Shown here: one piece after another, positions 6,114 through 61,231 of the stretch
How positions within the stretch are numbered: position 1 is the first letter of the stretch
How the letters are laid out: each line of letters opens with the position of its first letter
Source of the DNA: Candidatus Zixiibacteriota bacterium
GTDB taxonomy: Bacteria > Zixibacteria > MSB-5A5 > UBA10806 > 4484-95
Reading direction: 5' to 3'
Assembly (NCBI GenBank): GCA_021159005.1
Contig: JAGGSN010000078.1
Coordinates: 8,489-72,488 of the forward strand
Length of the DNA stretch: 64,000 nucleotides
Made by a program: the position numbers and the translations under genes
The notes under the pieces: generated by a model
What the model was told of the DNA's origin: nothing
The model's input: only the letters and a program-made list of their open reading frames with translations
The model's database searches: none

Positions 6114-7388
6114 ATGCTATCATCAAACGTAGGAAGATTAACAACAACAAAGATATATGTAGGCACGCTTTTTATATCGATTCTTTCGTTTTTCACAACC
6201 TTTAAAGGCTTATGCATAATACTATCATGGGAATTAGCCTTGCTTGGTTCCTTGGGCATTCAAACAGCGATGTTGGGAATTGCTTGGAATCTGATAAAAA
6301 TCAAGGAAGACCGCAAAAATTATGTCATAGCTTTCTCGGTGGCGGCGATTTTTTCCATTTTCTTTTCCTATGCAAACTTCGATACAAATCTGAAAGCCAA
6401 CACCAGACCCCGTGAAGCCCGAAGCGCCTATTATGAAGCGGTCAGACCAGTATTATCAGAATATGCCTCAATTACTAAAAACGCCGCTATCAAAGCCCGC
6501 TATCAATGTAATCGCCTTAACAGCTTAATCAATATGGAAGAAGAAAAAGGTTGGTCAACAATCATTGATGAGGGCAGTCAGGATAAGTTTCTGCAGTCAA
6601 TCATTGATGGCGCCAGGTTGACAGTTGAATCATGGAAACAATCAACCGGCACAGATTATCGTCAAGGGAAAGGCCGGGGTATAATAATCAATTATCTCGA
6701 AAGCAGGCAAAGTCAATCAGAAACCAATCTTAAATACATCGAGAGCTATATCTATTTACTTGATTCTCTTACATTAAGCCTGACAACACATATGACAGTA
6801 ACCGATCAATATAATATCGTTAATAAGGCTTATGTAAATCTCCCCATAAGCGTTGTTAGCATTATAAATTATGACGAAGGGCTTCATGGAATTTCAACGC
6901 CGCCTTCAATCAGCGTTTATACCGAAAAGCCCGCTAATACTCAACAGGCTTTAATGCTGGTAATTAACGACTTGTTTCACATGGATAGACTGGCATTCTT
7001 ATCGCTTATGCTGGCAATAGCCATCGACTTTATTGTTATTCTTATAGCCTTTGCAGGCAGTCACATAATGGCTAAATCTGATTTTATGCTTGAGAAAATC
7101 AAAGGAGATACCGCTAAACGTCTAAAAAGTATTAAACTTGAGGATACTGAAAAATTCAACAAGGTACTTGAGAGCAATCTCGAAATTTATAAAAAAGCCG
7201 CCCAGTATGGCAAAGATATATCAACGATTACCGATTATTACCAGAATTCGAGAAATAGCGGCAATTCCGGTTCAAGAAATAAATCTGTCTCTATTAAATA
7301 TGCCGGTCCGGGCAGTAAGCCATTTATAGCAAAAGAAAAATCGAGATTGGAAAAATGGTTAAAATCATCCAAACAACATATAGAATAA
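6114..7388 (+). CDS. Hypothetical polytopic membrane protein (orphan)
   Basis: 424-aa ORF with a strong RBS (AGGAGGA). It has TM helices at the N-terminus and again mid-protein. The 250 bp upstream is extremely AT-rich. No recognisable domain. Confidence 0.5.
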   Translation: MLSSNVGRLTTTKIYVGTLFISILSFFTTFKGLCIILSWELALLGSLGIQTAMLGIAWNLIKIKEDRKNYVIAFSVAAIFSIFFSYANFDTNLKANTRPREARSAYYEAVRPVLSEYASITKNAAIKARYQCNRLNSLINMEEEKGWSTIIDEGSQDKFLQSIIDGARLTVESWKQSTGTDYRQGKGRGIIINYLESRQSQSETNLKYIESYIYLLDSLTLSLTTHMTVTDQYNIVNKAYVNLPISVVSIINYDEGLHGISTPPSISVYTEKPANTQQALMLVINDLFHMDRLAFLSLMLAIAIDFIVILIAFAGSHIMAKSDFMLEKIKGDTAKRLKSIKLEDTEKFNKVLESNLEIYKKAAQYGKDISTITDYYQNSRNSGNSGSRNKSVSIKYAGPGSKPFIAKEKSRLEKWLKSSKQHIE

Positions 7389-7619: not shown

Positions 7620-9248
7620 ATGAGCATAACAAAAATACAATTATTCAAACAAGTGCCGCTGTTTTCCGGAATTCCAAAGGAATTATTCAACCATCTGATA
7701 AAAGTAGTAAGCGAACGCACTCTTCCTGCCGGGGAAATATTGTTTTCTGAAGGCGATACAGGTAAAACATTTTATATCATTAAATCAGGTAAAATTGATA
7801 TCCTAAAAAACGACTCCGCTTCAAATAATGAGATTAAGCTGGCAACTCGCGGTGAAGGTGATTTTTTTGGAGAGATGGCGCTTCTGGAAAGTTCCCCAAG
7901 GTTTGCTACAGCCAAAGCAATCAAAAAAACTGTTGTTTTGGAACTATCGCGAAAAAATTTCAGAAAAATAATTGCCGAATATCCATCAATTGCCTTAGAA
8001 ATAATGAGCGAATTATCCTCACGGTTGCGTCAGGCCGACCTTCAATCGATTCGCGACCTTCAAAGGAAAAAAGAACAGCTTGAAAAGTCTAATAAAAAAT
8101 TACTACAAACTACTCAGGAACTGAAAAAATCAAACGAAAGCATACAATCAGCCAACAAATTTCTGGAAACGATTATTTCCGCCTCGCAATTTTTTATAGT
8201 TGTTACCGACAATCAAGGTAAAATATTTATATTTAACGATGCCGCTAAAAAAGTTTTCAACATCATTTTTAGTGATATTGCCTGGTCAAATATCGATTCT
8301 GTTCTTAAGCCGGTTGGGAATAGCAATCTGCTTTCGGAAATCGAGAAAAATCTCGCCGAGGGAAAAACCTGGTCGGGCGATGTTTTAAATTTGACTCAAG
8401 ATAATAAAAAACAATTTATTGAACTTGTTGGAGCCAGAGTATTCGATGAAAAAGGGGACACTTTCGCATCTCTTTATATGGGGCGGGATATTACCGAGGA
8501 AAAGAATGTTGAACGCCAGATGATATTCCTCGACCGGATGGCTAGCAGAGGCGAAATGGCTGGGGAAATAGCCCATGAGTTAAACAATTTCCTTGCGGTT
8601 GTAATGGGAAATCTTGAGCTGCTTCAAATGGAAATTCAAATGAGCAAAACCGATAAAGCTTTGAAAAAAATCAATTCCATGCAAGGCGGGCTCGATAAAA
8701 TAAGAAAATTCGCGGATAGTTTGATGATGTATTCAAGTCCGGATTTGAAAAAAGAGGAATTCGATATTCATTCGTTTTTTGAAAATGAGCTATTCTTCAT
8801 TAAAGCCCACAGTCGTTTTGATAATATCAAAATTGTCTTTGATTTTGCTAAAAGCATGCCTTTAATAACCGCTGATAAAAGCCAGATTCAACAGGTATTA
8901 ATAAATCTGCTAAACAACGCCGCTGATGCCGCTGAAAATTTGCCTGATAGAAAAAGCAAGATTGTAGTTAAAACACTTTACCAGCCGAATGATAATTCAA
9001 TAATTATTTCAGTTACCGATAACGGAGTAGGTTTTGTCGATGATAGCCTTGATAAAGTATTCAGGCAGCATTTTACAACTAAAGAAAGAGGACATGGATT
9101 TGGTCTTCTGGCGGTAAAGAGGGTCGTTAAGAACCATGCCGGCAAGGTCTGGGCTGAAAATAACCCCGAAGGCGGGGCTATATTTTATATTCAATTACCG
9201 ATAAACTCCGAAGAAGTAAAATCAGCTATTCCATCTAATGTAAGCTAA
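7620..9248 (+). CDS. Cyclic-nucleotide-binding domain / PAS / sensor histidine kinase
   Basis: N-terminal CAP-like cNMP-binding fold ('FGEMALLES..PRFATAKA'), a coiled coil, a PAS-like segment, H-box 'EIAHELNNFLAVV', N-box 'LINLLNNAADA', G1 'DNGVGF' and G2 'GHGFGL'. Confidence 0.8.
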   Translation: MSITKIQLFKQVPLFSGIPKELFNHLIKVVSERTLPAGEILFSEGDTGKTFYIIKSGKIDILKNDSASNNEIKLATRGEGDFFGEMALLESSPRFATAKAIKKTVVLELSRKNFRKIIAEYPSIALEIMSELSSRLRQADLQSIRDLQRKKEQLEKSNKKLLQTTQELKKSNESIQSANKFLETIISASQFFIVVTDNQGKIFIFNDAAKKVFNIIFSDIAWSNIDSVLKPVGNSNLLSEIEKNLAEGKTWSGDVLNLTQDNKKQFIELVGARVFDEKGDTFASLYMGRDITEEKNVERQMIFLDRMASRGEMAGEIAHELNNFLAVVMGNLELLQMEIQMSKTDKALKKINSMQGGLDKIRKFADSLMMYSSPDLKKEEFDIHSFFENELFFIKAHSRFDNIKIVFDFAKSMPLITADKSQIQQVLINLLNNAADAAENLPDRKSKIVVKTLYQPNDNSIIISVTDNGVGFVDDSLDKVFRQHFTTKERGHGFGLLAVKRVVKNHAGKVWAENNPEGGAIFYIQLPINSEEVKSAIPSNVS

Positions 9249-9251
9249 GTT

Positions 9252-9602
9252 ATGGATATACTGTTTTTCCTAATATTAGGACATTTCTGCGGCGATTACG
9301 CTTTTCAGTCTGACCGCATGGCTGAACGCAAAAAATCGTCTTTAATAATACTATCATATCATGTAATAGTATATACTATTTGTATCGGGGCATTTTTCGT
9401 GTTCTATTCGCTGTTATATTATCCGGGGTTGTTTTATCAAACTGCCACCTTATTATTTTTAGGAATATTATATATTGAGCACTGGGTACAGGATTTCATT
9501 AAGAACCGTAATGAAACCTGCTCGAAACAAAACTATTATATCGATCAGATGATACACATTGCTGTTTTATATTTTTATCGAATTTTTATATATTCTGGTT
9601 AA
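9252..9602 (+). CDS. Small integral membrane protein (DUF3307-like)
   Basis: 116 aa with three hydrophobic helices. Lies between the histidine kinase and the cyclase gene. Confidence 0.4.
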   Translation: MDILFFLILGHFCGDYAFQSDRMAERKKSSLIILSYHVIVYTICIGAFFVFYSLLYYPGLFYQTATLLFLGILYIEHWVQDFIKNRNETCSKQNYYIDQMIHIAVLYFYRIFIYSG

Positions 9603-9607
9603 TCAAG

Positions 9608-12600
9608 GTGAGCAATACCGAATTAAAATATCTAATCCCTTATTTGCCGGATATATTAATCAATACTGCTGATTGTGATATAAACAATACCGAAAATAGA
9701 ATTATAAACGGAACATTGCTGTTTGCCGACCTCTCGGGTTTTACCGCTATGTCCGAGAAATTGGCCATTATGGGCAGACTGGGCGCCGAAAAATTGGCTG
9801 GCATAATGAATAACTGTTTTAATCCGCTTCTGGGATTGGTTTTTGCTACTGATGGTGATGTTGTCAAATTTGGAGGGGACGCTTTTCTTGCCCTTTTCAC
9901 CGGTAAAGATAATGGTTTAAAAGCTTTCAATTGCGCCAATAATCTGATTAACTGGGTAAATGAGAACAGCAGAATTTCCACATCAGCAGGTGATTTCACG
10001 CTTGGCATTCATGCCGGTATAAGCAAGGGCGATATTTTCAATTTTACTATAGGCAGTAAACGGCGCGATCATCTCTTTTGCGGACAAATAGTCGAGAACG
10101 TTTATGCCGCCGCTGATGCCGCTGAACTTGGTCAACTGGCAATGACAAAAGAAGCCGCCCGGTTTTTTAATAACCTTGATTTCAATGAAACCGATGACGG
10201 GTTCTATATCTGCCAAAATTTAAGTAAAACCTGTAATTATAAACCGGCAATAAGATCTATCGCAGAAAAAACTGCCGCTAAACTATGTTTGGAAAAGTTT
10301 ATCATAACAGGCCTTCAAGACCAGCTTCATTTCAATAACGGTATAATCGAGGGTGAACATCGGGTTCTAACAAACCTTTTTATCGGTGTAAATTCATTAA
10401 GGAAAAACCTTGAGGCCAATATCGATGAATCCATTTCGGTTATAGATGAATATTTTACCATACTTAACGATATTATTATAAAATATGGCGGCGCCTTTGC
10501 TCGGCTTGACTCCAGCGGAACTTCTGAAAAGATGCTGATATTTTTCGGCGCGCCGGTGTGTTCCGGCCGTGATGCTCAAAACTGCTTGAAAGCTGTTTTG
10601 GAGATAGAGTCAGCGATGCAGGACATAAATAAAAAATTCGCTTACCCAATTAAGCATCGCTACGGCATCAATACCGGCCTTTGTTTTGTCGGCGATGTTG
10701 GCGGACAATGGCGGCGAGAATATACGGCTATGGGAGATGCTATCAATCTGGCAGCGCGTTTGATGTCTAAAGCTGATTACGGGGAAGCTTTAGTAGGTGA
10801 AGAAACAATAAAAATATGCGGCAATGATTTTATTACCTGTGATGGCGGTCATGTTAAGGTAAAAGGCAAACAAAAACCGGTTAAAGTATATTTCCTTGAA
10901 AAAGAATTTATTAAGGAAAGCTCAACTGAGCTTATTATCGGCCGGGAAAAGGAACTAGAACAGGTTCGCTTATTTATCGAAAAAATTGCAAATGATAAAA
11001 GGGCATTCTTGTTAGTTTCGGGAGAACCGGGTGCCGGAAAATCGCTTTTATGCGGCAGGATTAAAAATATCTCTATCGAAAAAGGACTGCTAAACATTGA
11101 GAGCGCCTGCTTCAAGCATACGGAAAAAACGCCTTACGTCCCTTTAAAGGCATTGCTAAGCGGTCTTTTGAAGTTATCGTCAAAATCATCGCAAAAACAA
11201 AAACGAGCAGCTCTTCAACAACAGATTAGAAATATAGGCGAAAGCGAATGGGAACCATTAATAGCGCCTTTGTTGGATTATTTTCCAGCAGTGCCGCCAG
11301 AGATAAAGAATTTACCGGATGATATTAAGAAGCAAAAAATCAACGATATCCTGAGTCGTCTAATTTGTGAAATCAATAGTAAAAACCGGTCTCTGCTAAT
11401 TATCGATGATATCCAGTGGATAGATGAGACATCGTTTAATATAATAAAAGCGTTAAAAGGATTAAATAATTCACCGGGGATTGTATTTATCAGCCGCCCC
11501 GGTAAAATTTATGATGAACTGACTAAATCGTCGGATGTGACGAACATTAATCTTGGCGGTTTGACATCCGAAAATTCCCGCAAGCTGTTTTTAACTATTC
11601 TGGAAGGTATATTGCCCTCTGAGGATATCATCCAACAAGTTATAGAAAAATCCGGCGGTAATCCTTTTTATTTGGAGGAGATGGCTCGAGCCTTTATAGA
11701 ATTAGGTTCTGAAAGATTTAACGCCGCTGATAATATACCATCAGGTATAGAATCGGTTATCACCGCCAGAATCGATAATCTTGGGGAAATGGTAAAAAAA
11801 ACCGTTCGCACTGCCAGCGTAATAGGCAGAGTATTCCCATATAATGCTTTAAAAAATATATTCCCTGATAGAAAAAGGGTTGGCAAATTGCGGGAATATA
11901 TCGAAAATCTGGCGCATCTTGATTTAACTCCGCTTGAAAGACAACAACCGGTGTTGGAATATATTTTCAAACATATTTTAACTCAAGAAGTTGCCTATAA
12001 CGGCTTGCCATTTTCATCTCGAAAAAGCCTTCATATTAAAACTGCCGAGTTTTATATTAGTAAAAAGCGGTTTTTGAAACGCAAGCCTGATGTTCCCGCT
12101 CATCATTACCTTTTAGCCGGCGAGGAGCTTAAGGCTTTACCTTATCTATTTATGGCAGGGCAAAAAGCGGTTTCCGAGTTTGCCAGCAGCGAAGCTTTCG
12201 GATTTTTTAATAGAGTTATTGAAATATCTGAAAAACATAACAACAAAGAATATCTCGCTAAAGCGTTACAGAACAGCGGCGAACTGGCAAAACACACAGG
12301 CAATTACAAACTGGCAGAGGAGAATTATTCGCGACTGAAAATGTGTATGGCGGGGAATATCACTATGACAGCGTTGGCGTTGCGTGAAATTTCACTGATT
12401 CACCGTCTGACAGCTGACTATGACAAAGCCGAAATAATTATCGATGAACTGGGAAAACTTCTGCCCGATGATATTCCCATTAAAATATTTAATCTCAATG
12501 GCAAGGCGGAAATCGCCCGCCGCCGGGGTAAACTTCAAGATTGTCGGGAATTATTACTAAAGGCTCTGAAGTTATGCAGGGAAAACGACCCTCCCCCGAA

Positions 12601-13672
12601 TTTGGAGGCAGTTGTTTACAATAATCTGGGTATTTGCCACTGGAGTATGGGTAAAATAAAAGAAGCTGCCGTTTACTATAAATCAGCCTTAGCCCTATAT
12701 CGTCGATTGAAAGATTTAAACGGACAGTCAAAGATTGTAAATAATCTAGGTATTATAAGCGATGAAATGGGCAAACTTCATCAGGCAGCCAATTCATATG
12801 AAAAAGCGGAGAAAATTTTCATACGTATCGGAGCTTCCCGCTCAGAGGCATTCGCCTGCGCTAATCTTGGTACAAATTTTTCAACCAGAGGCTATTTATT
12901 AAAGGCTGCTGATAAACTAAACCGGGCACACACAATATTCAAAAAAATCGGCGATCAACATAGTTTAGCATATACAATCGGCGACCTTGGGATAGTATAT
13001 TTGCGTGAAGGGGATATCGGGAAAGCTAAAAATTATTTAGCAGATGCGCTTGAAATGGCGCTTCAATTGAAAGACGAAGAGTTTATCTTAGAATCAAAAG
13101 TCAGATTAGCGCGGTTAAGACTTAACGAAGCCAAATTAACTATTTCTGAAGTTGAGAAGTTAATTGATAAAGCCAAAGAAGTCGGTTCGGCGGAATTGGA
13201 AATCAAATCCCATATACTTAAAGGACTATTACAATTAAGCACAGGCAATTACGATATTATTAATGGTACTATTGAAATGCTAAATAATATGGAAGAAATA
13301 AGGAATTACCCCGAACTCGAATTGGAATTATCGAAATTGAAAATCCTATTTCATTATATATTTAATGACAAAACAATCGCTATTAAGTTATTAAACACGG
13401 CATTCAAGAAAGCAATATCGGGCGATTTAGCCATAATGGTGTCTGACTTGATAGTAGTTGGCAATGGCTGCGGTTTGATGTTGGAAATTCCATCGAATAT
13501 ATCAGGTAAGATTAGCCAATATTTTGAGAGACTGAAAAATAACATGGAATCTGCCAAACATGAACAACTTATGGTTTTCATCAAAAGAAAGACTGAATAT
13601 TTAAAAAGTATGTTAGCCAATTGTCAAGATAAGCAAAATCAGTCAAAAGTATTGGATTTTACCAATAAATAG
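9608..13672 (+). CDS. Tandem class III nucleotidyl cyclase domains fused to a STAND (AAA_16/NB-ARC-like) NTPase and a TPR array
   Basis: First cyclase homology domain has 'FADLSGFT' and 'GDAFLALF'. Second has 'GDAINLAARL'. Walker A 'GEPGAGKS' at about aa 475. The C-terminal ~450 aa are TPR-like repeats. GTG start. Confidence 0.8.
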   Translation: MSNTELKYLIPYLPDILINTADCDINNTENRIINGTLLFADLSGFTAMSEKLAIMGRLGAEKLAGIMNNCFNPLLGLVFATDGDVVKFGGDAFLALFTGKDNGLKAFNCANNLINWVNENSRISTSAGDFTLGIHAGISKGDIFNFTIGSKRRDHLFCGQIVENVYAAADAAELGQLAMTKEAARFFNNLDFNETDDGFYICQNLSKTCNYKPAIRSIAEKTAAKLCLEKFIITGLQDQLHFNNGIIEGEHRVLTNLFIGVNSLRKNLEANIDESISVIDEYFTILNDIIIKYGGAFARLDSSGTSEKMLIFFGAPVCSGRDAQNCLKAVLEIESAMQDINKKFAYPIKHRYGINTGLCFVGDVGGQWRREYTAMGDAINLAARLMSKADYGEALVGEETIKICGNDFITCDGGHVKVKGKQKPVKVYFLEKEFIKESSTELIIGREKELEQVRLFIEKIANDKRAFLLVSGEPGAGKSLLCGRIKNISIEKGLLNIESACFKHTEKTPYVPLKALLSGLLKLSSKSSQKQKRAALQQQIRNIGESEWEPLIAPLLDYFPAVPPEIKNLPDDIKKQKINDILSRLICEINSKNRSLLIIDDIQWIDETSFNIIKALKGLNNSPGIVFISRPGKIYDELTKSSDVTNINLGGLTSENSRKLFLTILEGILPSEDIIQQVIEKSGGNPFYLEEMARAFIELGSERFNAADNIPSGIESVITARIDNLGEMVKKTVRTASVIGRVFPYNALKNIFPDRKRVGKLREYIENLAHLDLTPLERQQPVLEYIFKHILTQEVAYNGLPFSSRKSLHIKTAEFYISKKRFLKRKPDVPAHHYLLAGEELKALPYLFMAGQKAVSEFASSEAFGFFNRVIEISEKHNNKEYLAKALQNSGELAKHTGNYKLAEENYSRLKMCMAGNITMTALALREISLIHRLTADYDKAEIIIDELGKLLPDDIPIKIFNLNGKAEIARRRGKLQDCRELLLKALKLCRENDPPPNLEAVVYNNLGICHWSMGKIKEAAVYYKSALALYRRLKDLNGQSKIVNNLGIISDEMGKLHQAANSYEKAEKIFIRIGASRSEAFACANLGTNFSTRGYLLKAADKLNRAHTIFKKIGDQHSLAYTIGDLGIVYLREGDIGKAKNYLADALEMALQLKDEEFILESKVRLARLRLNEAKLTISEVEKLIDKAKEVGSAELEIKSHILKGLLQLSTGNYDIINGTIEMLNNMEEIRNYPELELELSKLKILFHYIFNDKTIAIKLLNTAFKKAISGDLAIMVSDLIVVGNGCGLMLEIPSNISGKISQYFERLKNNMESAKHEQLMVFIKRKTEYLKSMLANCQDKQNQSKVLDFTNK

Positions 13673-13866
13673 GGAATTTTCCCAATAATTCTTAGGCGTT
13701 TTATCCGCAATTAAATCATTGTCGTCTTTTCTATTATATTTAATAACAATAGGTTATAACATTCTGCAGAAAATCCCGTTTTTGGGATAATTATATGCTT
13801 ATTGAATATTTCAAAATAGCTAAAGAAATAATTAACAAAAAGGAAGTAATAAACAAGGAGAAAAAC

Positions 13867-14454
13867 ATGAACAAGATGGTGAGAAGCTGTACTTTATTAA
13901 GTATTATAGCAGTATTAGTTGTTGGTTTAGTATTCTCCGGTTGTTCAAATGACACCCCTCTCGGTCCTGATTCTAATGTCGAACAGACGTCATTAAATAG
14001 AATGATTCTGCCGTTGGGAGGAAGCACTACAACGCAAAGTAAGGGCGGTGGTGTTGGTGATCTAACTGTAGTTACGGCAGTTGAAGTTGATAAAGTAATA
14101 AAAGCTTCAAGTGGCGGAAAAATAGATATTGTTGATAATTCTTATGAACATCTTTTTACTATTCAAGAGAATGCCATTCCGACCGATACGCTGATTACTA
14201 TTGCAAAAACTCATGAAATGGTTAATGAAAATGAATCGGCTGTTTTTGAATTTGGTCCTGATGGTTTGGTATTTAGCAGTTCTTCTGTTCTCGAATTTGA
14301 AATGGCAGAATTAGACTCTTCTGCCGCTACTGCAAAACTGTACTATTATGACCCTTCTGATGAAACTTGGGATTTGCAGGATACTAAGTCGGTTGTTGAT
14401 GGCAAGGTTGCTTTCGATATCGATCATTTTAGCAGATATGCAATAAGCGATTAA
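13867..14454 (+). CDS. Hypothetical lipoprotein
   Basis: The likely true start is the ATG at 13867, preceded by AGGAG. The ORF track starts at 13795. Signal peptide ends in lipobox 'VFSGC'. Confidence 0.45.
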   Translation: MNKMVRSCTLLSIIAVLVVGLVFSGCSNDTPLGPDSNVEQTSLNRMILPLGGSTTTQSKGGGVGDLTVVTAVEVDKVIKASSGGKIDIVDNSYEHLFTIQENAIPTDTLITIAKTHEMVNENESAVFEFGPDGLVFSSSSVLEFEMAELDSSAATAKLYYYDPSDETWDLQDTKSVVDGKVAFDIDHFSRYAISD

Positions 14455-14481
14455 TAAAAAAGGGTGGAATATATTAAGTAA

Positions 14482-14509
14482 AGCCTGCCATTGGCGGGCT
14501 TTTTTATTT
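14482..14509 (+). terminator. Rho-independent terminator
   Basis: Hairpin AGCCUGCC-AUUG-GGCGGGCU followed by UUUUUUAUUU. Sits between convergent genes. Confidence 0.7.
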
Positions 14510-45376: not shown

Positions 45377-47551
45377 TTAATCTTTGAAAAACTCCAGTTC
45401 CGGTATTCGACCTTCCTCAACATCCATGCCAACTCCGTAATTATTGGCGCCATAGTGTTCATCATCCTTGGCAGGGGAAAACCAGATTGAATTATTAAGG
45501 CATTTTTTACTGATTACTTTCTTTTTGTTGTCTTCTATCCAATCGAAATACTTGTCCTCGCCGCCTATATCTAAAAGCAGACCGAATGATTTCGCATAGG
45601 CGTCAAAAGGCGAGAACTGGTTAGGGTGGTCATAGCTGTCCCTATAGGCGGCGGCGCCGAAACCCTGCTGGTCTTGCTGAAGCTGATAATAATCATCGCC
45701 GCCGATATCGAACAGCATGGCATTGGAACGAATCTGAGCGCAGCCCAAGGAAATTATTTTAGCGATATAGCGGTCATTGCCGCCGGTATCAAATAGCAGA
45801 GCGTTAGTATAATCCCAGCCAAAAGCTATTCCGGCACCGGCGGTTTCCCATAATTCGTGTGTATCGTTGCCGCTTTCATCAAGTATAGCTCCGATACAAT
45901 AATGTGCTCCGGAGGCTTGAGTAAAATATACGGACTTGTACAGATCATCCCCCGCGCCCTCATATACCAATCCCATCCCAAACCAGTAGCCGCAGCCGAG
46001 AGTCCAGTTGCCGGAATAGTATTCATCATTGCCCTTTATATCAATCAATGCTCCCAGTCCGCCAGCCCAGCTATGACCATCGGAACCATCCCCGCGGCGC
46101 CCCATACCGGCACCCTGCGCGGCATTGACATTTATTTTATGCTTGGAGTGATAATCGCCGCGGTCAACTACATCCGCAGAAGGTTCGGCGGTATATTTGT
46201 CATCCCCTCTGTAGTCAGCAATAACACCGATGCCGCCGACACCGCCGAATCCCTGGCCATCACCATAGATATACCAATTGTCATCCCCTTCGATATCAAG
46301 CGCAAAACCAAGCCCAAAATAGCCGCAGCCCTGTCCGCTTGTTTCGAGTTTGTAGTCGTCATTGCCGTCAATATCGAGAAGCAAACCCAGTCCAAACATA
46401 CCGCAGCCCTGAGACATTCTTTTTGATATATAATTATCCTTGCCGCCGCCATCGATTAATATCCCCGCGCCAAGGATAGCTGCGCCCTGTGAAAGCATAT
46501 CAGGGTCGTTATTTACATAGGTGTCTTTGCCGGACATATCAACAGCTATGCTTATGGGAACATCCAGCGACGGAGTAGCGCCTATTATGCCGCTATGGTG
46601 ATCATTGCCGCCCAAATCGATTAATATAGCGGCGTCCCGATAATCAGTTTCATCATCATCAGTGCCCAAAATTATTACTTTGCCATAAGGGCAATCATAC
46701 TCGAAATTGATTTTCGAGAGCTTGTCATCTGTTATACTCAGATACTTTTTGAGATCTTGGTAGCATGTCTGAGCGGCTTGAACGGCTTTCATACAGCTAT
46801 AATAAAGTGAATGCTCATCCAATCTTGAGGCGATATCATCTATTTGAGGATAATAAACCTGCCCGTCGCCGATAGTCTCAGCTAAATCCTTTATTGCAAA
46901 AAGTGATGCCATGTCTTCATAGTCGAGATTGCGAACCGCAATCTGCCGCCATTTGTAGGCATCATACAGGTTAAGCATCAACGCCGCGATTATCTTTTGA
47001 AGCTCAATAGGCAAAGGCTCAAGTTTTTCTGCCAATTCTTTGCTAATATCAGGTCCGCCATATTTATCGCCAAACGAAATGAAGTTGGCCTGTTTGCATT
47101 CCGAGTAATGTATCCGGGTAAATGCCTCCAGCATCGGCGCCATAGAGTCCGGTTTTGGGTCGAGGTTTACACTGTAGTTTCTGAATCCGGTAATTTTCCT
47201 ATCGACTCCCAGCATATAGACAATCCGGTGAAGGCTGGTGCCCGCAGTGTCGAAATACTCCGGCTCCATATAGAACGCGATAGTATTGCCCATTGTTTTG
47301 GCATAATCATAAGTGCGCATAGGTTCGGCAAACAGGTCCTCGAAAAATGGCAGTATGTGCGGGATTAGTTTTGGATTAGGAAAACGGTTCCAATAGCCCT
47401 TAGGCTGATAGCCAAGGTCGGAACGGTTAAATCCCACTTCCTCAAGAGCCTGCCCCAGACGGTCTGCACTTGATGAATCTTGTATTTCCTGAGCAATACA
47501 AGTTGATGCAATTGAAATTAACAATGCCACTATAATCATTCTTTTTGTCAT
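45377..47551 (-). CDS. Secreted beta-solenoid-like repeat protein (about 11 'D-x-G-G-x-D-x-Y' repeats); function unknown
   Basis: Signal peptide, a non-repetitive N-terminal domain of about 300 aa, then repeats of about 23 aa ('IDLGGNDHH', 'IDGGGKDNY', 'LDIDGNDDY', 'LDIEGDDNW', 'IDIKGNDEY', 'FDTGGNDRY', 'FDIGGDDYY', 'LDIGGEDKY'). Confidence 0.6.
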   Translation of the reverse strand: MTKRMIIVALLISIASTCIAQEIQDSSSADRLGQALEEVGFNRSDLGYQPKGYWNRFPNPKLIPHILPFFEDLFAEPMRTYDYAKTMGNTIAFYMEPEYFDTAGTSLHRIVYMLGVDRKITGFRNYSVNLDPKPDSMAPMLEAFTRIHYSECKQANFISFGDKYGGPDISKELAEKLEPLPIELQKIIAALMLNLYDAYKWRQIAVRNLDYEDMASLFAIKDLAETIGDGQVYYPQIDDIASRLDEHSLYYSCMKAVQAAQTCYQDLKKYLSITDDKLSKINFEYDCPYGKVIILGTDDDETDYRDAAILIDLGGNDHHSGIIGATPSLDVPISIAVDMSGKDTYVNNDPDMLSQGAAILGAGILIDGGGKDNYISKRMSQGCGMFGLGLLLDIDGNDDYKLETSGQGCGYFGLGFALDIEGDDNWYIYGDGQGFGGVGGIGVIADYRGDDKYTAEPSADVVDRGDYHSKHKINVNAAQGAGMGRRGDGSDGHSWAGGLGALIDIKGNDEYYSGNWTLGCGYWFGMGLVYEGAGDDLYKSVYFTQASGAHYCIGAILDESGNDTHELWETAGAGIAFGWDYTNALLFDTGGNDRYIAKIISLGCAQIRSNAMLFDIGGDDYYQLQQDQQGFGAAAYRDSYDHPNQFSPFDAYAKSFGLLLDIGGEDKYFDWIEDNKKKVISKKCLNNSIWFSPAKDDEHYGANNYGVGMDVEEGRIPELEFFKD

Positions 47552-52729: not shown

Positions 52730-54706
52730 TTATTTACTGGCAGTATCCTTTTCATCTTGATTATCTTTCTTGTCATCTTTTTCAGCCTTAAAAAGCAGAG
52801 TAATATTTTTCTTCGAGCTTTCAGATAGAAGAAGTTGGCGCAGTTTAGGCCAATCGCCGGATGTAAATGAGGATTGTTTCAATCTAAGCGACCGGCTTAT
52901 TATAACCTTGTCATCATGCTGAGATGTCTCAACCGAGAAACTGCCAACACCATTATTTAAAAAGTAATCAGCCGGTGTATGGATTATATCCAAACCTTTC
53001 TTATCCAACCGAAATTCAACTTTTTGGGACATCAAGCATGGAAGAACAATTTCCGATGCTCGCTCCTGATGGTATAAATGAACATCATTGGGCAAATTAG
53101 CAATAATGCCGCCCGAGGGATTGCCTATCTCAAAGGAAAGCCTTTCAAAATCATCCGGCGCCGGTTTTTTCAATTCCAATTCGAATCCCATTGCTGTCAT
53201 AAAGCGGCTGAATTTTACCGGATTGCAAGCCGTTATTTTGGCGCCCTTAATAAGTCCTGAGACTACAGAATTCAGATAGTTTTTCGATTCATTGGATAAG
53301 CCTTCCATTTTATGATAGGGGCTTAGATAATTATCAGCGTATAAAAAACCTTTGCCGGTAAATATCTCTTTCTTGCTGTTATAAACCAAATTTATACTAA
53401 TATCAATTTGACTTACTTTGTCTGTTCGGTCAAAGGCAACAGCCGGTATATCGTTATTATCAGCAATCCATACGGTGCGGCCATAAATGTTTTTAGAGCC
53501 ATTTTCAACAGTTCCGCTTTGAGGGTTATAATAAGCATCAAGATATTGTCCTGTTAACCATAAAACGACATTATTCATCCGTGATAATGAAGGTATTCCA
53601 TCATTGATATTGCCATATCCTCTGCTGATATATACCGGGTGTATGGTGATTCCCGCATTTTTGAAAAGAGCTGCAGATAGTATTGCCCTATCAAGATTAT
53701 GGCCATAGGCAGTGTTGAAAACGCGGGAAGCATCACGCGGGAAAGACTGCCAGAAATGCTCCGGATAGTTAATAATTCTGGTTTTCTGGTTTATATAATC
53801 CACTATTAAATCAGCTTTTTCTGCTTCCGTTCGAGCGTCATATAAAAGTGAATCAAGTGATTTTTTTACAGGCTTATTGATTGCTATGTTTTTTGTAAAA
53901 CAATCAGTCAAGTGTTTGCCATACTCAGGCCAGCTATCCCAGGTTGACCAGACAATATACGGAACACCCGCCGCCGGGTCATTTACCAAAGGACGAGGTT
54001 TGCTTTCAACAGTCCCCATTTTCCACCAATAGGTATCAAGACCCAACTCCTGATTAGCGATTTTCTCAGGCGCCGGCACTCCTTCCGATGTGAATACTTT
54101 AAGCTTTTGCCCTGTTGGCAATCCATAACAAAACCATGACTGCACTGCCGGTTCATTGCGGGCAAATGTCCATAAGCCGTCAGCTCCCTTGCGGAATGGT
54201 TCCTTATCCTCAATAGAATAAGCCACCTCGAGTATGCAGGGCAGTTCGATGCCGTTATGCAAAAGCATCATCTCGCGCATGTTTGAATAATCATAGGCTT
54301 TCTCAAGAGCAAAAGGAGTAGTTTCAACAAAACCGGTTTTGCCCGTTGTCCACCATTGATTATCGCGCCAGGTGCGAACCGTTTCAACATTAAATGCTGT
54401 ATGAGCATCATCATAGGGAATACGATGGTCGCCATAATGTTCCAAGGCGTAATCGGTTTGTATCCATATTATGCGATGGATGTGATTAACTAAACGGCCA
54501 TCCGGAAGCCAGTTGACTCTCTGCTCATCGAACAATAAAACCGCGTCTTCCTGTGATAAATCGAATCTGTTTTCGGCAATGGTGTAAAGCTCGGCAATAT
54601 CCTGCATCCCCGTGATAGATTTTTGCGCCCAAACATCAGAAACTGATAATGCCAGACAAATCGAAATCATAAATGCGGCAAGTATGCTATTATAAAAAGT
54701 CTTCAT
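52730..54706 (-). CDS. DUF3857-like secreted protein with a degenerate (Cys-less) transglutaminase-like domain
   Basis: Signal peptide. The transglutaminase-like core 'AYGHNLDRAILSAALFKNAGITIHPVYI' has Leu where the catalytic Cys is expected. Paralogous to the downstream-encoded partner. Start overlaps the partner's stop. Confidence 0.55.
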   Translation of the reverse strand: MKTFYNSILAAFMISICLALSVSDVWAQKSITGMQDIAELYTIAENRFDLSQEDAVLLFDEQRVNWLPDGRLVNHIHRIIWIQTDYALEHYGDHRIPYDDAHTAFNVETVRTWRDNQWWTTGKTGFVETTPFALEKAYDYSNMREMMLLHNGIELPCILEVAYSIEDKEPFRKGADGLWTFARNEPAVQSWFCYGLPTGQKLKVFTSEGVPAPEKIANQELGLDTYWWKMGTVESKPRPLVNDPAAGVPYIVWSTWDSWPEYGKHLTDCFTKNIAINKPVKKSLDSLLYDARTEAEKADLIVDYINQKTRIINYPEHFWQSFPRDASRVFNTAYGHNLDRAILSAALFKNAGITIHPVYISRGYGNINDGIPSLSRMNNVVLWLTGQYLDAYYNPQSGTVENGSKNIYGRTVWIADNNDIPAVAFDRTDKVSQIDISINLVYNSKKEIFTGKGFLYADNYLSPYHKMEGLSNESKNYLNSVVSGLIKGAKITACNPVKFSRFMTAMGFELELKKPAPDDFERLSFEIGNPSGGIIANLPNDVHLYHQERASEIVLPCLMSQKVEFRLDKKGLDIIHTPADYFLNNGVGSFSVETSQHDDKVIISRSLRLKQSSFTSGDWPKLRQLLLSESSKKNITLLFKAEKDDKKDNQDEKDTASK

Positions 54707-56715
54707 TTCTTGCCTCCTTTCTCAGCTCGAAAAACAGTCTTGCTAAACTTTTTAGCTTCCTTCATAGCCCTGCAAAAATCAGCATAGCCTTCTGATGGAA
54801 CCTGACGGCGATTTATTTTTGCGGTAAATTTTGTAATTAGCTTATCCTTCGACATCTTGCTTTCACCTTTGAAATAGGCATAAGTATCATCGATTTTCTT
54901 GCTGTTCTTAGGCTTTTCAACTTTAAATCCTTTTGGTAATTTAATAGTTTCATTACCGTCGATAAGCCTGGTCGAATAGAAAAATAAATCATCGCGCCGC
55001 TCTTTCGGCCAATCGATTGTCCCATAATACAACTGAACTTCATTGGCGTATTCTACTAAGGGGCTTTTAAACTCATAGCCATTATCAGTCAAGAGAGCAT
55101 ATTCGGGAATTCTATATTTTATTTTCCACCACATATTTTTATGAAAATCGAGCAAATCGCCATGCTCATAGCTGATTATTTCAATCCTATCGCTAACGTA
55201 ATGAAGATGCCCGGCTAAGTAATTGTTCAAATCGGCAAGACGGCCGCGATTAAGCATACCGCGCAGACGGGAATCTCTGGTGCCGTTTCCGCTCAATTCG
55301 AGCGTGCCCTCCAAAGAGCAGTCTTTGAATATCCTGGCTGTATTTGTTATTCTCATAGACGATTCCTCGGGAGGGCTGTACCGTATTCGGTTTAACGATT
55401 CGCCCTCAGGGTTGCCTATTAAATAATGCTGTTCTGATTCATACTTGCTCCAGACATCTTTTTGAAACGGCACCCAGGTCGGGTCATACATCTCGAAACT
55501 GCCGTCGTTTTTCTTAAGAGCAACTACGCAATGATTGAACTGGTCGGCGGGAATCTCCTCGATGCGGCTGCCGGCCATAGTCATAGCGCCATAAGAATCC
55601 AAACCGGCTGCTCTCATCATGGTGATTAGCATACCGGCAATATCTTTACATACGCCGCTCCGCTGTTCGAATATCATGGCGCCGGAATGCAAGGTATAAC
55701 CCTCGCCTTTGCCCATTGTTTGACCGCTGTAGCGGATATTCTGAGCAACCCAGTGCACCAACTCGAATGCCTTTTCCTCCTCCGTTCCCTTAGCAACGCC
55801 GGCTTTGGCGAAAATCTCATCGACTTTAGCTTTAATAGCATCGGTATATTCAAATTGCGGCTCGTTAACATCAAAGAACCAACGGCTCTTAGCCTCCCAG
55901 CTTTCAACAGTGGCCAATACAACCTTGGTGATAATGTCGGTATCATCGGGACGATACTGCTGAGGTTCCCAAGCAGGCATATCCTTTGTCCACCAGGAGT
56001 AAGTCGTTGTATCTGCATTATAGCTGGTGCTGGTATACATTGGTCCATTATATACCTGCGAGTGGAGACGCTTATCGGCAGGCAGTTTCAAGATATATTT
56101 TTTCTCCACAATCGGCACGGTTGCCTCGAAAAGCACAATATCGAAATACTGTCCGCGCATCGGCGGAATATAATTTTCATCATCCGGCTCGGGTGTTTTG
56201 GGATCGAGCAAGGCATACGAATAACCTTTGCGGTATGTTTTAATTTCGATACCATCACCTGCCAAAAGTCTGGGAAGCTGGAGCGATTTATTCCTATCGC
56301 CCCAGAATATCCCGCGCTGCGGAGCTGGCAAATCGATAATTTCGTCAACCGATACCGGAATTGACTTTTCACCTCGGATGATATTGACCTCATGTATTTC
56401 AACATAATTGGTTAGCGGCTCATAATGCCAGGTTTGAACAGCCAACTTTTTACAGCCGTCATCAGTAAGCGCTTTATACAGGATGTAGCTATCCGTATAT
56501 GTTATTCCTAAGTCATTTACCCTATTGACTGATGAGTCAACAACAATAGCGTAAGCGGCGCTATCGAAATCGGCGGCATTACCGGCGTTCTTAATCCGGT
56601 CGAATACGGTCGGCGGCGGGTTGTCGCCGGGAGGCAGTGATTGCGGGCTGCCTATTTGAGCCTCAACACATGCTGTCATCAATAATATCAAAACAATTAA
56701 AACGGCTCTTTTCAC
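54703..56715 (-). CDS. DUF3857 / transglutaminase-like cysteine protease domain protein (catalytic triad intact)
   Basis: Signal peptide. 'RSGVCKDIAGMLITMMRAAGLDSYGAMTMAG' (Cys), '...FNHCVVAL' (His), 'YDPT' (Asp). Confidence 0.65.
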   Translation of the reverse strand: MKRAVLIVLILLMTACVEAQIGSPQSLPPGDNPPPTVFDRIKNAGNAADFDSAAYAIVVDSSVNRVNDLGITYTDSYILYKALTDDGCKKLAVQTWHYEPLTNYVEIHEVNIIRGEKSIPVSVDEIIDLPAPQRGIFWGDRNKSLQLPRLLAGDGIEIKTYRKGYSYALLDPKTPEPDDENYIPPMRGQYFDIVLFEATVPIVEKKYILKLPADKRLHSQVYNGPMYTSTSYNADTTTYSWWTKDMPAWEPQQYRPDDTDIITKVVLATVESWEAKSRWFFDVNEPQFEYTDAIKAKVDEIFAKAGVAKGTEEEKAFELVHWVAQNIRYSGQTMGKGEGYTLHSGAMIFEQRSGVCKDIAGMLITMMRAAGLDSYGAMTMAGSRIEEIPADQFNHCVVALKKNDGSFEMYDPTWVPFQKDVWSKYESEQHYLIGNPEGESLNRIRYSPPEESSMRITNTARIFKDCSLEGTLELSGNGTRDSRLRGMLNRGRLADLNNYLAGHLHYVSDRIEIISYEHGDLLDFHKNMWWKIKYRIPEYALLTDNGYEFKSPLVEYANEVQLYYGTIDWPKERRDDLFFYSTRLIDGNETIKLPKGFKVEKPKNSKKIDDTYAYFKGESKMSKDKLITKFTAKINRRQVPSEGYADFCRAMKEAKKFSKTVFRAEKGGKK

Positions 56716-61007: not shown

Positions 61008-61080
61008 GCCGGAGTAGCTCAGTTGGTAGAGCAGCTGATTTGTAATCAGCCGGTCGGCGGTTCGAGTCCGTTCTCCGGCT
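61008..61080 (+). tRNA. tRNA-Thr (anticodon UGU)
   Basis: Acceptor stem GCCGGAG/CTCCGGC, D-arm GCTC..GAGC, anticodon loop TTTGTAA, T-loop GGTTCGAGTCC. No encoded CCA. Confidence 0.85.
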
Positions 61081-61149: not shown

Positions 61150-61231
61150 GGTGGGGTTCCCGAGTGGCCAAAGGGAACAGACTGTAAATCTGTCGGCGAA
61201 GCCTTCGAAGGTTCGAATCCTTCCCCCACCA
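61150..61231 (+). tRNA. tRNA-Tyr (anticodon GUA), type II with a long variable arm
   Basis: Acceptor GGTGGGG/CCCCACC, anticodon loop CTGTAAA, variable arm 'CGGCGAAGCCTTCG', T-loop GGTTCGAATCC. Confidence 0.85.

Follow-up and report, generated by a model that had tools for sequence, protein, structure and literature searches.

A stretch of 64,000 nucleotides from a Candidatus Zixiibacteriota bacterium (contig JAGGSN010000078.1, positions 8,489 to 72,488; hereafter the window) contains a three-gene cassette that encodes a histidine kinase with a cyclic-nucleotide-binding (CNB) domain, a small membrane protein of the DUF3307 family and a large nucleotide cyclase. We consider it probable that this cassette is a dedicated, chromosomally inherited relay in which a cyclic mononucleotide (cNMP), probably cyclic AMP (cAMP), acts on the histidine kinase and, through it, on a regulator that is probably of the NtrC type. 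The circuit looks like housekeeping signalling rather than an anti-phage system. Three open reading frames (ORFs) on the plus strand span exactly positions 7620-13672 of the window:

7620..9248, plus strand: soluble sensor histidine kinase of 542 residues, with CNB, coiled-coil, PAS, HisKA and HATPase regions (ORF, translation, Pfam)
9252..9602, plus strand: four-helix DUF3307 membrane protein of 116 residues (Pfam DUF3307, phrog_2470, AlphaFold2 (AF2) model)
9608..13672, plus strand: nucleotide cyclase of 1354 residues resembling soluble adenylyl cyclase (sAC), with tandem cyclase homology domains (CHD1 and CHD2), a STAND NTPase and tetratricopeptide repeats (TPR) (Pfam, PDB sequence matches, AF2 and Foldseek, alignment of 32 orthologues)

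The genes are closely packed, with junctions read in the sequence of 3 nt between the kinase stop codon and the DUF3307 gene and of 5 nt between the end of the latter and the cyclase start, a GTG codon that is the earliest possible start past an in-frame stop. Neither the kinase nor the cyclase has a transmembrane (TM) segment, which leaves the DUF3307 protein as the sole membrane component of the trio. These ORFs and their Pfam domains confirm the arrangement described in the original prediction, a model's reading of the letters of this DNA, in which a cyclase lies next to a CNB-PAS-histidine kinase with a small DUF3307 gene between them. The whole window holds one CNB gene and one CHD cyclase gene.

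The cassette shows a high degree of conservation. A scan restricted to one genome per species gave 45 loci with a full-length CNB kinase, 39 of them informative (at least 1.5 kb of downstream sequence), and the kinase, DUF3307 and cyclase genes follow each other in the same order and on the same strand in 36 of the 39, down to a kinase identity of 28%. Consistent with this, all 23 subfamily loci found in a metagenome scan seeded with DUF3307 alone (35-67% identity) carry the trio, a locus being counted if, within the limits of its contig, the kinase gene lies upstream and/or the cyclase gene downstream. The homologues of DUF3307 and the cyclase retrieved by word index were mainly close or short relatives, and the distribution holds for the sampled loci. 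Identity to the window proteins co-varies across loci, the kinase tracking the cyclase with r = 0.97 and the DUF3307 protein with r = 0.94. Flanking genes change from clade to clade, and the Na/Ca exchanger, the 424-aa ORF and the M16 peptidases of the window are syntenic nowhere among the related loci. Co-occurrence and correlated divergence despite differing flanks indicate that the trio is a unit under selection, and that the adjacency of its genes is not due to chance. This unit includes the DUF3307 gene, which is not an insertion between two partners, as had been supposed, but a constant and obligate third member of the cassette. Presence in 36 of the 39 informative loci with such tightly correlated divergence further indicates that the cassette is inherited vertically and is not a patchy mobile island. 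The proposal of a self-contained second-messenger relay, which was to be refuted by a lack of co-occurrence in related genomes, is thus supported by a decisive co-occurrence, as well as by the invariance of G84, E85 and R94 in the kinase.

The three loci (numbered here with the prefix L) that depart from this arrangement, L034, L044 and L045, hold second paralogues of the kinase, and the metagenome-assembled genomes (MAGs) in which they occur also hold a copy of the cassette (L041, L037, L042). This second CNB-PAS kinase, also present in L030 (positions 1-939), likewise has the Arg-Phe-Ala motif ('RFA') described below, is without DUF3307 or cyclase gene and sits just 3' of an acetyl-CoA hydrolase/transferase gene, near genes for an esterase, a FadL-type porin and UvrA. 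In L030, this CoA-transferase gene is found ahead of the complete cassette as well. Many cassette-bearing MAG records (L001, L003, L008, L018-L020, L024 and others) are titled 'uncultured Ignavibacteria bacterium', and their proteins group with those of Zixibacteria-titled records; the taxonomy given by the depositors may be no more than a placeholder. Some cassette records are titled only 'uncultured bacterium', and a strict phylum restriction is not claimed.

The kinase, which is 100% identical to a public protein of a candidate division Zixibacteria MAG (P0001), comprises the following regions:

7716..7982, plus strand: CAP/PKA-type CNB domain, residues 33-121 (Pfam, PDB alignments)
7866..7922, plus strand: phosphate-binding cassette FGEMALLESSPRFATAKA, residues 83-101 (kinase-family alignment)
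8034..8039, plus strand: C-helix residues A139-D140, probable equivalents of CRP T127-S128 at the base-contacting position (register from a MAFFT alignment with E. coli CRP)
8160..8504, plus strand: PAS domain, residues 181-295 (Pfam PAS_9, PAS and PAS_4)
8547..9203, plus strand: kinase core, with HisKA (His319 in EIAHELNN) and HATPase_c with N, G1 and G2 boxes (Pfam, alignment)

Pfam matches cover cNMP_binding at residues 33-121 (E value of 6e-23), PAS_9 at 193-293, HisKA at 310-365 and HATPase_c at 419-528. The motifs quoted in the original prediction are found at residues 316-323 ('EIAHELNN', in which His319 is the H-box histidine) and 83-101 ('FGEMAL...PRFATAKA'). All four kinase boxes are intact: H319, N429/N433, D467/G469/G471 of G1 and G491/G493/G495 of G2 are invariant in an alignment of 21 homologues that share 29-83% identity. 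In NCBIfam, the kinase comes closest to an AtoS-like family, with a score below the family cut-off.

The CNB domain has 164 PDB sequence matches at E values of 1e-5 or less, those listed being CNB-domain proteins, and aligns with the ligand-binding CNB domains of PKG, PKA, CRP, SthK and MloK1. Within its phosphate-binding cassette, residues G84, E85, M86, R94, F95, A96 and A98 are invariant in the kinase family, down to 29% identity. Retention of the Gly-Glu pair, which contacts the ribose 2'-OH, and of the Arg, which contacts the phosphate, argues for binding of a cyclic nucleotide by this domain; in PDB alignment, both features are lost from the degenerate third site of Plasmodium PKG. The residue that follows the Arg is less usual. 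'RFA' occurs in about 99 of the 103 CNB-bearing members of the kinase family, and when 149 diverse CNB proteins are sampled, giving 463 cassette-like motifs, the same position is occupied by Ala (146), Thr (114) or Ser (67), that is in 327 of 463 cases, with Met, Leu, Ile, Tyr and Trp together accounting for about 3%. A genuine Phe is found in none of the 463, the single regular-expression match not being a real cassette. These motifs are a background sample from a CNB search of a representative library, whose ranking is dominated by multi-CNB proteins, and do not reveal other architectures with 'RFA'. The view that the canonical motif reads 'R[ST]A' therefore needs amending, as Ala is the commonest residue after the Arg, while the rarity of Phe in that place stands.

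In CRP, the C-helix residue S128 is at the position that contacts the base; PsPycTIR, which is a receptor for cUMP, has N143 as its counterpart, and XC_0249, a receptor for cGMP, has E146 (PMC11224242). The kinase residue aligned to CRP S128, D140, is invariant in the family. PsPycTIR keeps a canonical Arg97-Ser98 and owes its base specificity to the C-helix Asn (PMC11224242), so that Phe after the Arg is not a pyrimidine signature, a possibility that had been raised for this kinase.

The cyclase consists of a catalytic region followed by a long regulatory tail:

9695..10147, plus strand: CHD1, C1-like, residues ~30-180, supplying the metal Asp residues D41 and D91 and K87 (PDB sequence match, orthologue alignment)
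10346..10900, plus strand: CHD2, C2-like, residues ~247-431, without metal Asp and supplying R299, T373, N380 and R384 (PDB matches)
10937..11707, plus strand: STAND-type P-loop NTPase, with Walker A GEPGAGKS at residues 472-479 and Walker B IIDD at ~598-601 (Pfam)
12215..13207, plus strand: TPR sensor/scaffold region (Pfam TPR_12 and TPR_MalT)

Pfam assigns Guanylate_cyc to two stretches, AAA_16 to residues 444-628 (E value of 2.5e-20, with a weak NB-ARC match, E value of 7.5e-6) and TPR_12 (E value of 1.4e-27) and TPR_MalT (E value of 1.5e-14) to a region around residues 960-1200. The best PDB sequence match of CHD1 is the C1 domain of human sAC (ADCY10; E value of 5e-13), and CHD2 matches Pseudomonas aeruginosa CyaB (3r5g; E value of 3e-21) as well as the ADCY10 C2 domain. 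The AF2 model of residues 1-441 (pLDDT of 89, pTM of 0.89) leads to the same comparison in three dimensions: in a Foldseek search of the PDB, the top 24 hits are all human sAC (E value of ~1e-25, TM-scores of 0.73-0.80, the best of them 0.77-0.80, over both domains and ~470 aligned columns). The membrane cyclases AC9 and AC8 rank below these, and the matches to single-domain bacterial cyclases extend over half the model only.

Residues D41, D91, K87, R299, N380 and R384 are invariant in the 32 cyclase orthologues, and T373 is present in 31 of them. CHD1 lacks the transition-state Asn and Arg, as read from one PDB alignment. Since the metal Asp residues occur in CHD1 only and the transition-state Asn/Arg in CHD2 only, the modelled core is predicted to be a C1-C2 pseudo-heterodimer with a single active site, and, judged by its motifs, the enzyme looks active. 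It shares with sAC the tandem C1-C2 site, the separation of metal Asp in C1 from Asn/Arg in C2 and the succession of a STAND module and helical repeats. The adenine-specifying pair is conserved in part: the Thr is kept as T373, which is reportedly a marker of class IIIb adenylyl cyclases, but the Lys (K334 of sAC) is replaced by Arg299 in 32/32 orthologues, at a position that aligns with the CyaB Lys ('DKFVGD') with high posterior probability. As for the bicarbonate site of sAC, whose Lys95 and Arg176 we take to have column equivalents in the cyclase, the alignment shows an invariant K87 at the former and, at the latter, a Tyr that varies among the orthologues. Overall, the most fitting description of the protein is a bacterial class IIIb enzyme that resembles sAC and ends in a STAND-TPR tail.

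The third member of the trio matches Pfam DUF3307 (E value of 7e-15) and phrog_2470, annotated 'membrane protein' (E value of 1e-18), and its AF2 model (pLDDT of 91) consists of four long helices. Fifteen polar residues are invariant (H11, D15, Q19, D21, K27, H37, H77, Q80, D81, K84, R86, Q93, D98, Q99 and H102), among them two H-x3-D pairs (H11/D15 and H77/D81), H37 and D98/H102, a His/Asp cluster that looks like a metal site. The protein could serve the relay as a membrane anchor or scaffold, or through a metal-dependent activity of this cluster, such as hydrolysis of the messenger. Phage DUF3307 proteins share its fold (TM-scores of 0.7-0.75), and the only mention of 'DUF3307' in the literature searched is in a single phage genome table. 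Distant members of the family (28-33% identity) are encoded in phage-like strings of small co-directional ORFs (L107 2395-4868, L108 5983-8423 and L112 3462-6252). The gene is directly followed in L107 and L108 by one for a calcineurin-like metallophosphoesterase, with a second close by, and in L112 a gene for Tad3, a Thoeris inhibitor, lies a few kb upstream of it. The wider DUF3307 family may have a role related to nucleotide signals, or these neighbourhoods may be a coincidence.

A mechanism can be proposed from these elements. CHD1 and CHD2 would fold together, with CHD1 giving the metal Asp and CHD2 contributing Arg299 and Thr373 for contact with the base and Asn380 and Arg384 for the transition state, and the STAND NTPase-TPR module would presumably gate the cyclase by sensing some intracellular ligand or partner. 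The product would most likely be cAMP, because the enzyme is class IIIb-like, and would bind to the N-terminal CAP-type domain of the co-transcribed soluble kinase. The signal could then travel via the long C-helix/coiled-coil and the PAS domain and shift, in either direction, the autophosphorylation or phosphatase activity at His319. The phosphoryl group would finally be passed to a response regulator encoded elsewhere in the genome, for which the best candidate is an NtrC-type sigma-54 activator.

A profile search that recovers known receivers in other loci, and thereby provides a positive control, found no receiver domain across the 64-kb window, in agreement with the earlier remark that no response regulator is encoded nearby; in this genome, a regulator would thus have to lie beyond the window. 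Only one type of response regulator was seen directly beside the cassette, an NtrC-type gene (REC, Sigma54_activat and HTH_8 domains) that lies immediately downstream of the cyclase gene and convergent to it in a single clade:

L018 11916-13499, minus strand: NtrC-type response regulator gene
L019 16263-17915, minus strand: NtrC-type response regulator gene
L020 8026-9495, minus strand: NtrC-type response regulator gene
L047 5412-6917, minus strand: NtrC-type response regulator gene

One other receiver gene lies several kb from the cassette in L028. An NtrC-type partner is our best guess, and only a guess, because such a gene adjoins the cyclase in this clade and because of the AtoS-like NCBIfam match of the kinase.

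Several observations weigh against a cAMP-driven relay of this kind. The relay has strong comparative support, but the window contains no response regulator, and the NtrC-type neighbour belongs to one clade only. In another clade (L029-L031, L035, L038, L040 and L041), the Walker A and B motifs, conserved in most clades, are degenerate ('AEPEADVR' in place of 'GEPGAGKS', for example) although the cassette and the catalytic residues are kept, so that NTP-driven STAND switching is not universally required and a pseudo-NTPase STAND module is apparently tolerated. Control by bicarbonate in the manner of sAC is unlikely, because the Arg176 equivalent is not conserved. The DUF3307 protein has no fold match in the PDB (best E value of 2.3). 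Finally, two invariant positions are non-canonical, Arg299 in place of the adenine-specifying Lys and Phe95 in place of a small Ala, Ser or Thr, which makes cAMP an assumption and means that binding itself could be altered.

The last observation bears on the identity of the messenger. The same circuit could operate in housekeeping, not in immunity, on a different 3',5'-cNMP (cCMP, cGMP or other) that the cyclase makes and the kinase senses, and this we judge unlikely. In the producer as in the receiver, positions close to the nucleotide hold non-canonical residues that do not vary within the lineage: Arg299 is found in all 32 orthologues, at a place where tandem CHD-STAND relatives from Chloroflexota and Actinomycetota show K, A, T, G, E or Y; Phe95 typifies the kinase family and is rare elsewhere; and Asp140, likewise invariant, falls in the alignment on the C-helix residue that specifies the base in CRP, PycTIR and XC_0249. 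The CTP-specific cyclase EaPycC, whose specificity residues are F100, R142 and Q144 and whose metal ligands are D102 and D146 (PMC11224242), has its R142 four residues before the second metal Asp, at what appears to be the canonical Lys position. Replacement of Lys by Arg is, however, conservative and may still allow pairing with adenine N1, and Thr373 is the class IIIb adenylyl-cyclase marker common to sAC and CyaB. On the receiver side, the known cUMP receptor keeps Arg-Ser and a link between Phe and pyrimidines is undocumented, while bulky Met, Leu, Ile or Tyr follows the Arg in about 3% of other cassettes, and the C-helix register derives from a sequence alignment. A fuller version, in which a housekeeping pathway runs on a non-cAMP cNMP such as cCMP, Arg299, Phe95 and Asp140 are the specificity determinants and the DUF3307 protein is a metal-dependent membrane enzyme or gate, seems quite unlikely. 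It is very unlikely that the CNB-fold domain binds no cyclic nucleotide at all, with Phe95 occluding or repurposing the pocket, or the domain acting as a mere dimerization or regulatory module, and the trio forming a membrane-tethered complex. In its favour, other CNB domains have essentially no Phe after the cassette Arg, an obligate DUF3307 partner suggests a complex at the membrane, and within the CRP/FNR family the CNB fold can accommodate ligands other than nucleotides. NtcA, which binds 2-oxoglutarate, has Arg-Phe at the equivalent place, without the Glu. Yet the Gly-Glu and the phosphate-binding Arg, which are usually lost in non-binding CNB homologues, are invariant family-wide, and the strict linkage to a catalytically intact cyclase is simplest to understand if the product of that cyclase is the ligand.

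An anti-phage function of the Pycsar or Avs kind, in which the STAND-TPR region would recognize a phage protein, the cyclase would act as effector or signal generator and the cNMP would activate an executor through the CNB protein, is most improbable. The layout of the cyclase, an N-terminal enzyme followed by a STAND NTPase and C-terminal TPR, is the general one of antiviral STAND proteins, and PADLOC reports matches to PycC (best E value of 1e-16) and PycTIR (E value of 3e-19). Those matches, however, span shared domains only (residues 22-162 of the cyclase for PycC and 20-146 of the kinase for PycTIR). The wider DUF3307 family is found in phages, and its distant copies lie in phage-like contigs near metallophosphoesterase genes and, once, a few kb from the Tad3 anti-Thoeris gene. 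Against this, no killing effector is present, the CNB domain being fused to an intact and conserved histidine kinase; the sAC-type tandem CHD core is unlike the homodimeric PycC and PucC; and vertical inheritance with correlated divergence is not what a patchy mobile island would show. Scans of 19 window ORFs with Pfam and of five with PADLOC brought up no defence or mobile genes, and the window is ordinary chromosome, with genes for PolA, FtsK, M16 peptidases and a Na/Ca exchanger and two tRNAs. The Pycsar-like sensor-effector pair offered by the original prediction as its alternative to a relay is accordingly abandoned.

If the cNMP-to-kinase relay holds true, it would be the first defined case of a cyclic mononucleotide that directly gates a two-component histidine kinase and has its own dedicated cyclase, joining two major bacterial signalling currencies in one operon. 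A search of the literature, whose searchable part is incomplete and gives no proof of absence, found no paper on a histidine kinase regulated by cAMP, cGMP or any cNMP. The cassette would also give the DUF3307 family, which is common in phages as well, its first functional context, and would offer a tractable bacterial model for full-length sAC in which the STAND/P-loop tail has fixed and testable genetic partners. Arg299, Phe95 and Asp140 are simple mutational handles for nucleotide specificity. Were the messenger other than cAMP, the pathway would represent the first non-immune bacterial role for such a messenger along with the first cNMP-gated histidine kinase.

Other features of the window lie around the cassette or at a distance from it:

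6114-7388: 424-aa membrane/coiled-coil ORF directly 5' of the kinase gene
13867..14454, plus strand: small lipoprotein, possible fourth gene (ORF 13795-14454; likely ATG at 13867 behind AAGGAG; lipobox LVFSGC; from translation)
14480..14502, plus strand: terminator-like hairpin, with a 10-bp stem and a T-run after it, the first such hairpin 3' of the cassette (consensus match only)
45377-47551, minus strand: 724-aa ORF without any Pfam match
52730-56715, minus strand: two neighbouring large DUF3857 proteins, which carry DUF3858 in one case and a transglutaminase core in the other
61008-61080 and 61150-61231, plus strand: two tRNA genes, at 61 kb

The lipoprotein has no Pfam, PADLOC or PHROG match. 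Its homologues occur downstream of the cyclase gene in many, not all, related loci, at times on the opposite strand (L032 and L041), and it may be a loosely associated fourth gene of the cassette. The 424-aa ORF, which has several hydrophobic segments and a Ser/Asn/Lys-rich tail, is also without Pfam, PADLOC or PHROG match; neither it nor the Na/Ca exchanger is retained as a member, being syntenic with the cassette in no related locus. A consensus scan for promoters is uninformative, with 37 matches against 25±5 in shuffled sequences and the best one ending 2 nt before the kinase ATG. Rfam gives no match in or near the cassette, the two tRNAs being its only matches in the window.

Comparison with known systems places the cassette outside the Pycsar/Pucsar family. 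The two share a class III-type cyclase encoded beside a CAP-type cNMP-binding protein, and similarity to Pycsar profile models exists at the level of domains. However, Pycsar and Pucsar systems combine a stand-alone homodimeric cyclase, in which one domain holds both metal Asp and the base-specifying residues, with a CNB protein bearing a TIR or TM killing effector, and would be expected in a patchy, horizontally mobile distribution like that of defence islands, whereas the cassette pairs a tandem sAC-type cyclase and its STAND-TPR tail with an intact kinase, has a third conserved gene, is inherited vertically and lies in a housekeeping neighbourhood. The receptors also differ, with Arg-Ser in the Pycsar cUMP receptor cassette and Arg-Phe in the Zixibacteria kinase. 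The kinase shares with receptors of the CRP, PKA and XC_0249 types the CNB fold, a phosphate-binding cassette that has the Gly-Glu and the Arg, and a C-helix leading to an output module; it departs from them in its PAS-HisKA-HATPase output, in the Phe after the Arg and in the Asp at the putative CRP S128 equivalent.

The cyclase architecture, CHD(-CHD)-AAA_16-TPR, recurs in multidomain class III cyclases from Chloroflexota and Actinomycetota, which are 27-32% identical across both CHDs but lack the Arg at the substrate-specifying position. A STAND/AAA-TPR tail on a class III cyclase is also a feature of the Rv0386-type enzymes of Mycobacterium. The three Chloroflexota/Actinomycetota cyclase loci inspected have neither a CNB kinase nor a DUF3307 neighbour. 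The closest structural parallel is full-length sAC (ADCY10), likewise a tandem C1-C2 pseudo-heterodimer with metal Asp in C1 and Thr and Asn/Arg in C2. Relative to CyaB, the cyclase also has a four-residue insertion in C2 after the substrate-specifying position, which we take to match the sAC sequence. In both proteins, the catalytic core is followed by a STAND P-loop module and helical repeats; full-length mammalian sAC has a predicted STAND domain with a P-loop whose regulator and role are unknown (PMC12802110). The Zixibacteria cyclase differs from sAC by the Arg in place of Lys334 and by a bicarbonate-site Arg176 equivalent that is not conserved. At an identity of ~20%, it is moreover a bacterial enzyme whose operon also encodes a dedicated CNB receptor and a DUF3307 protein.

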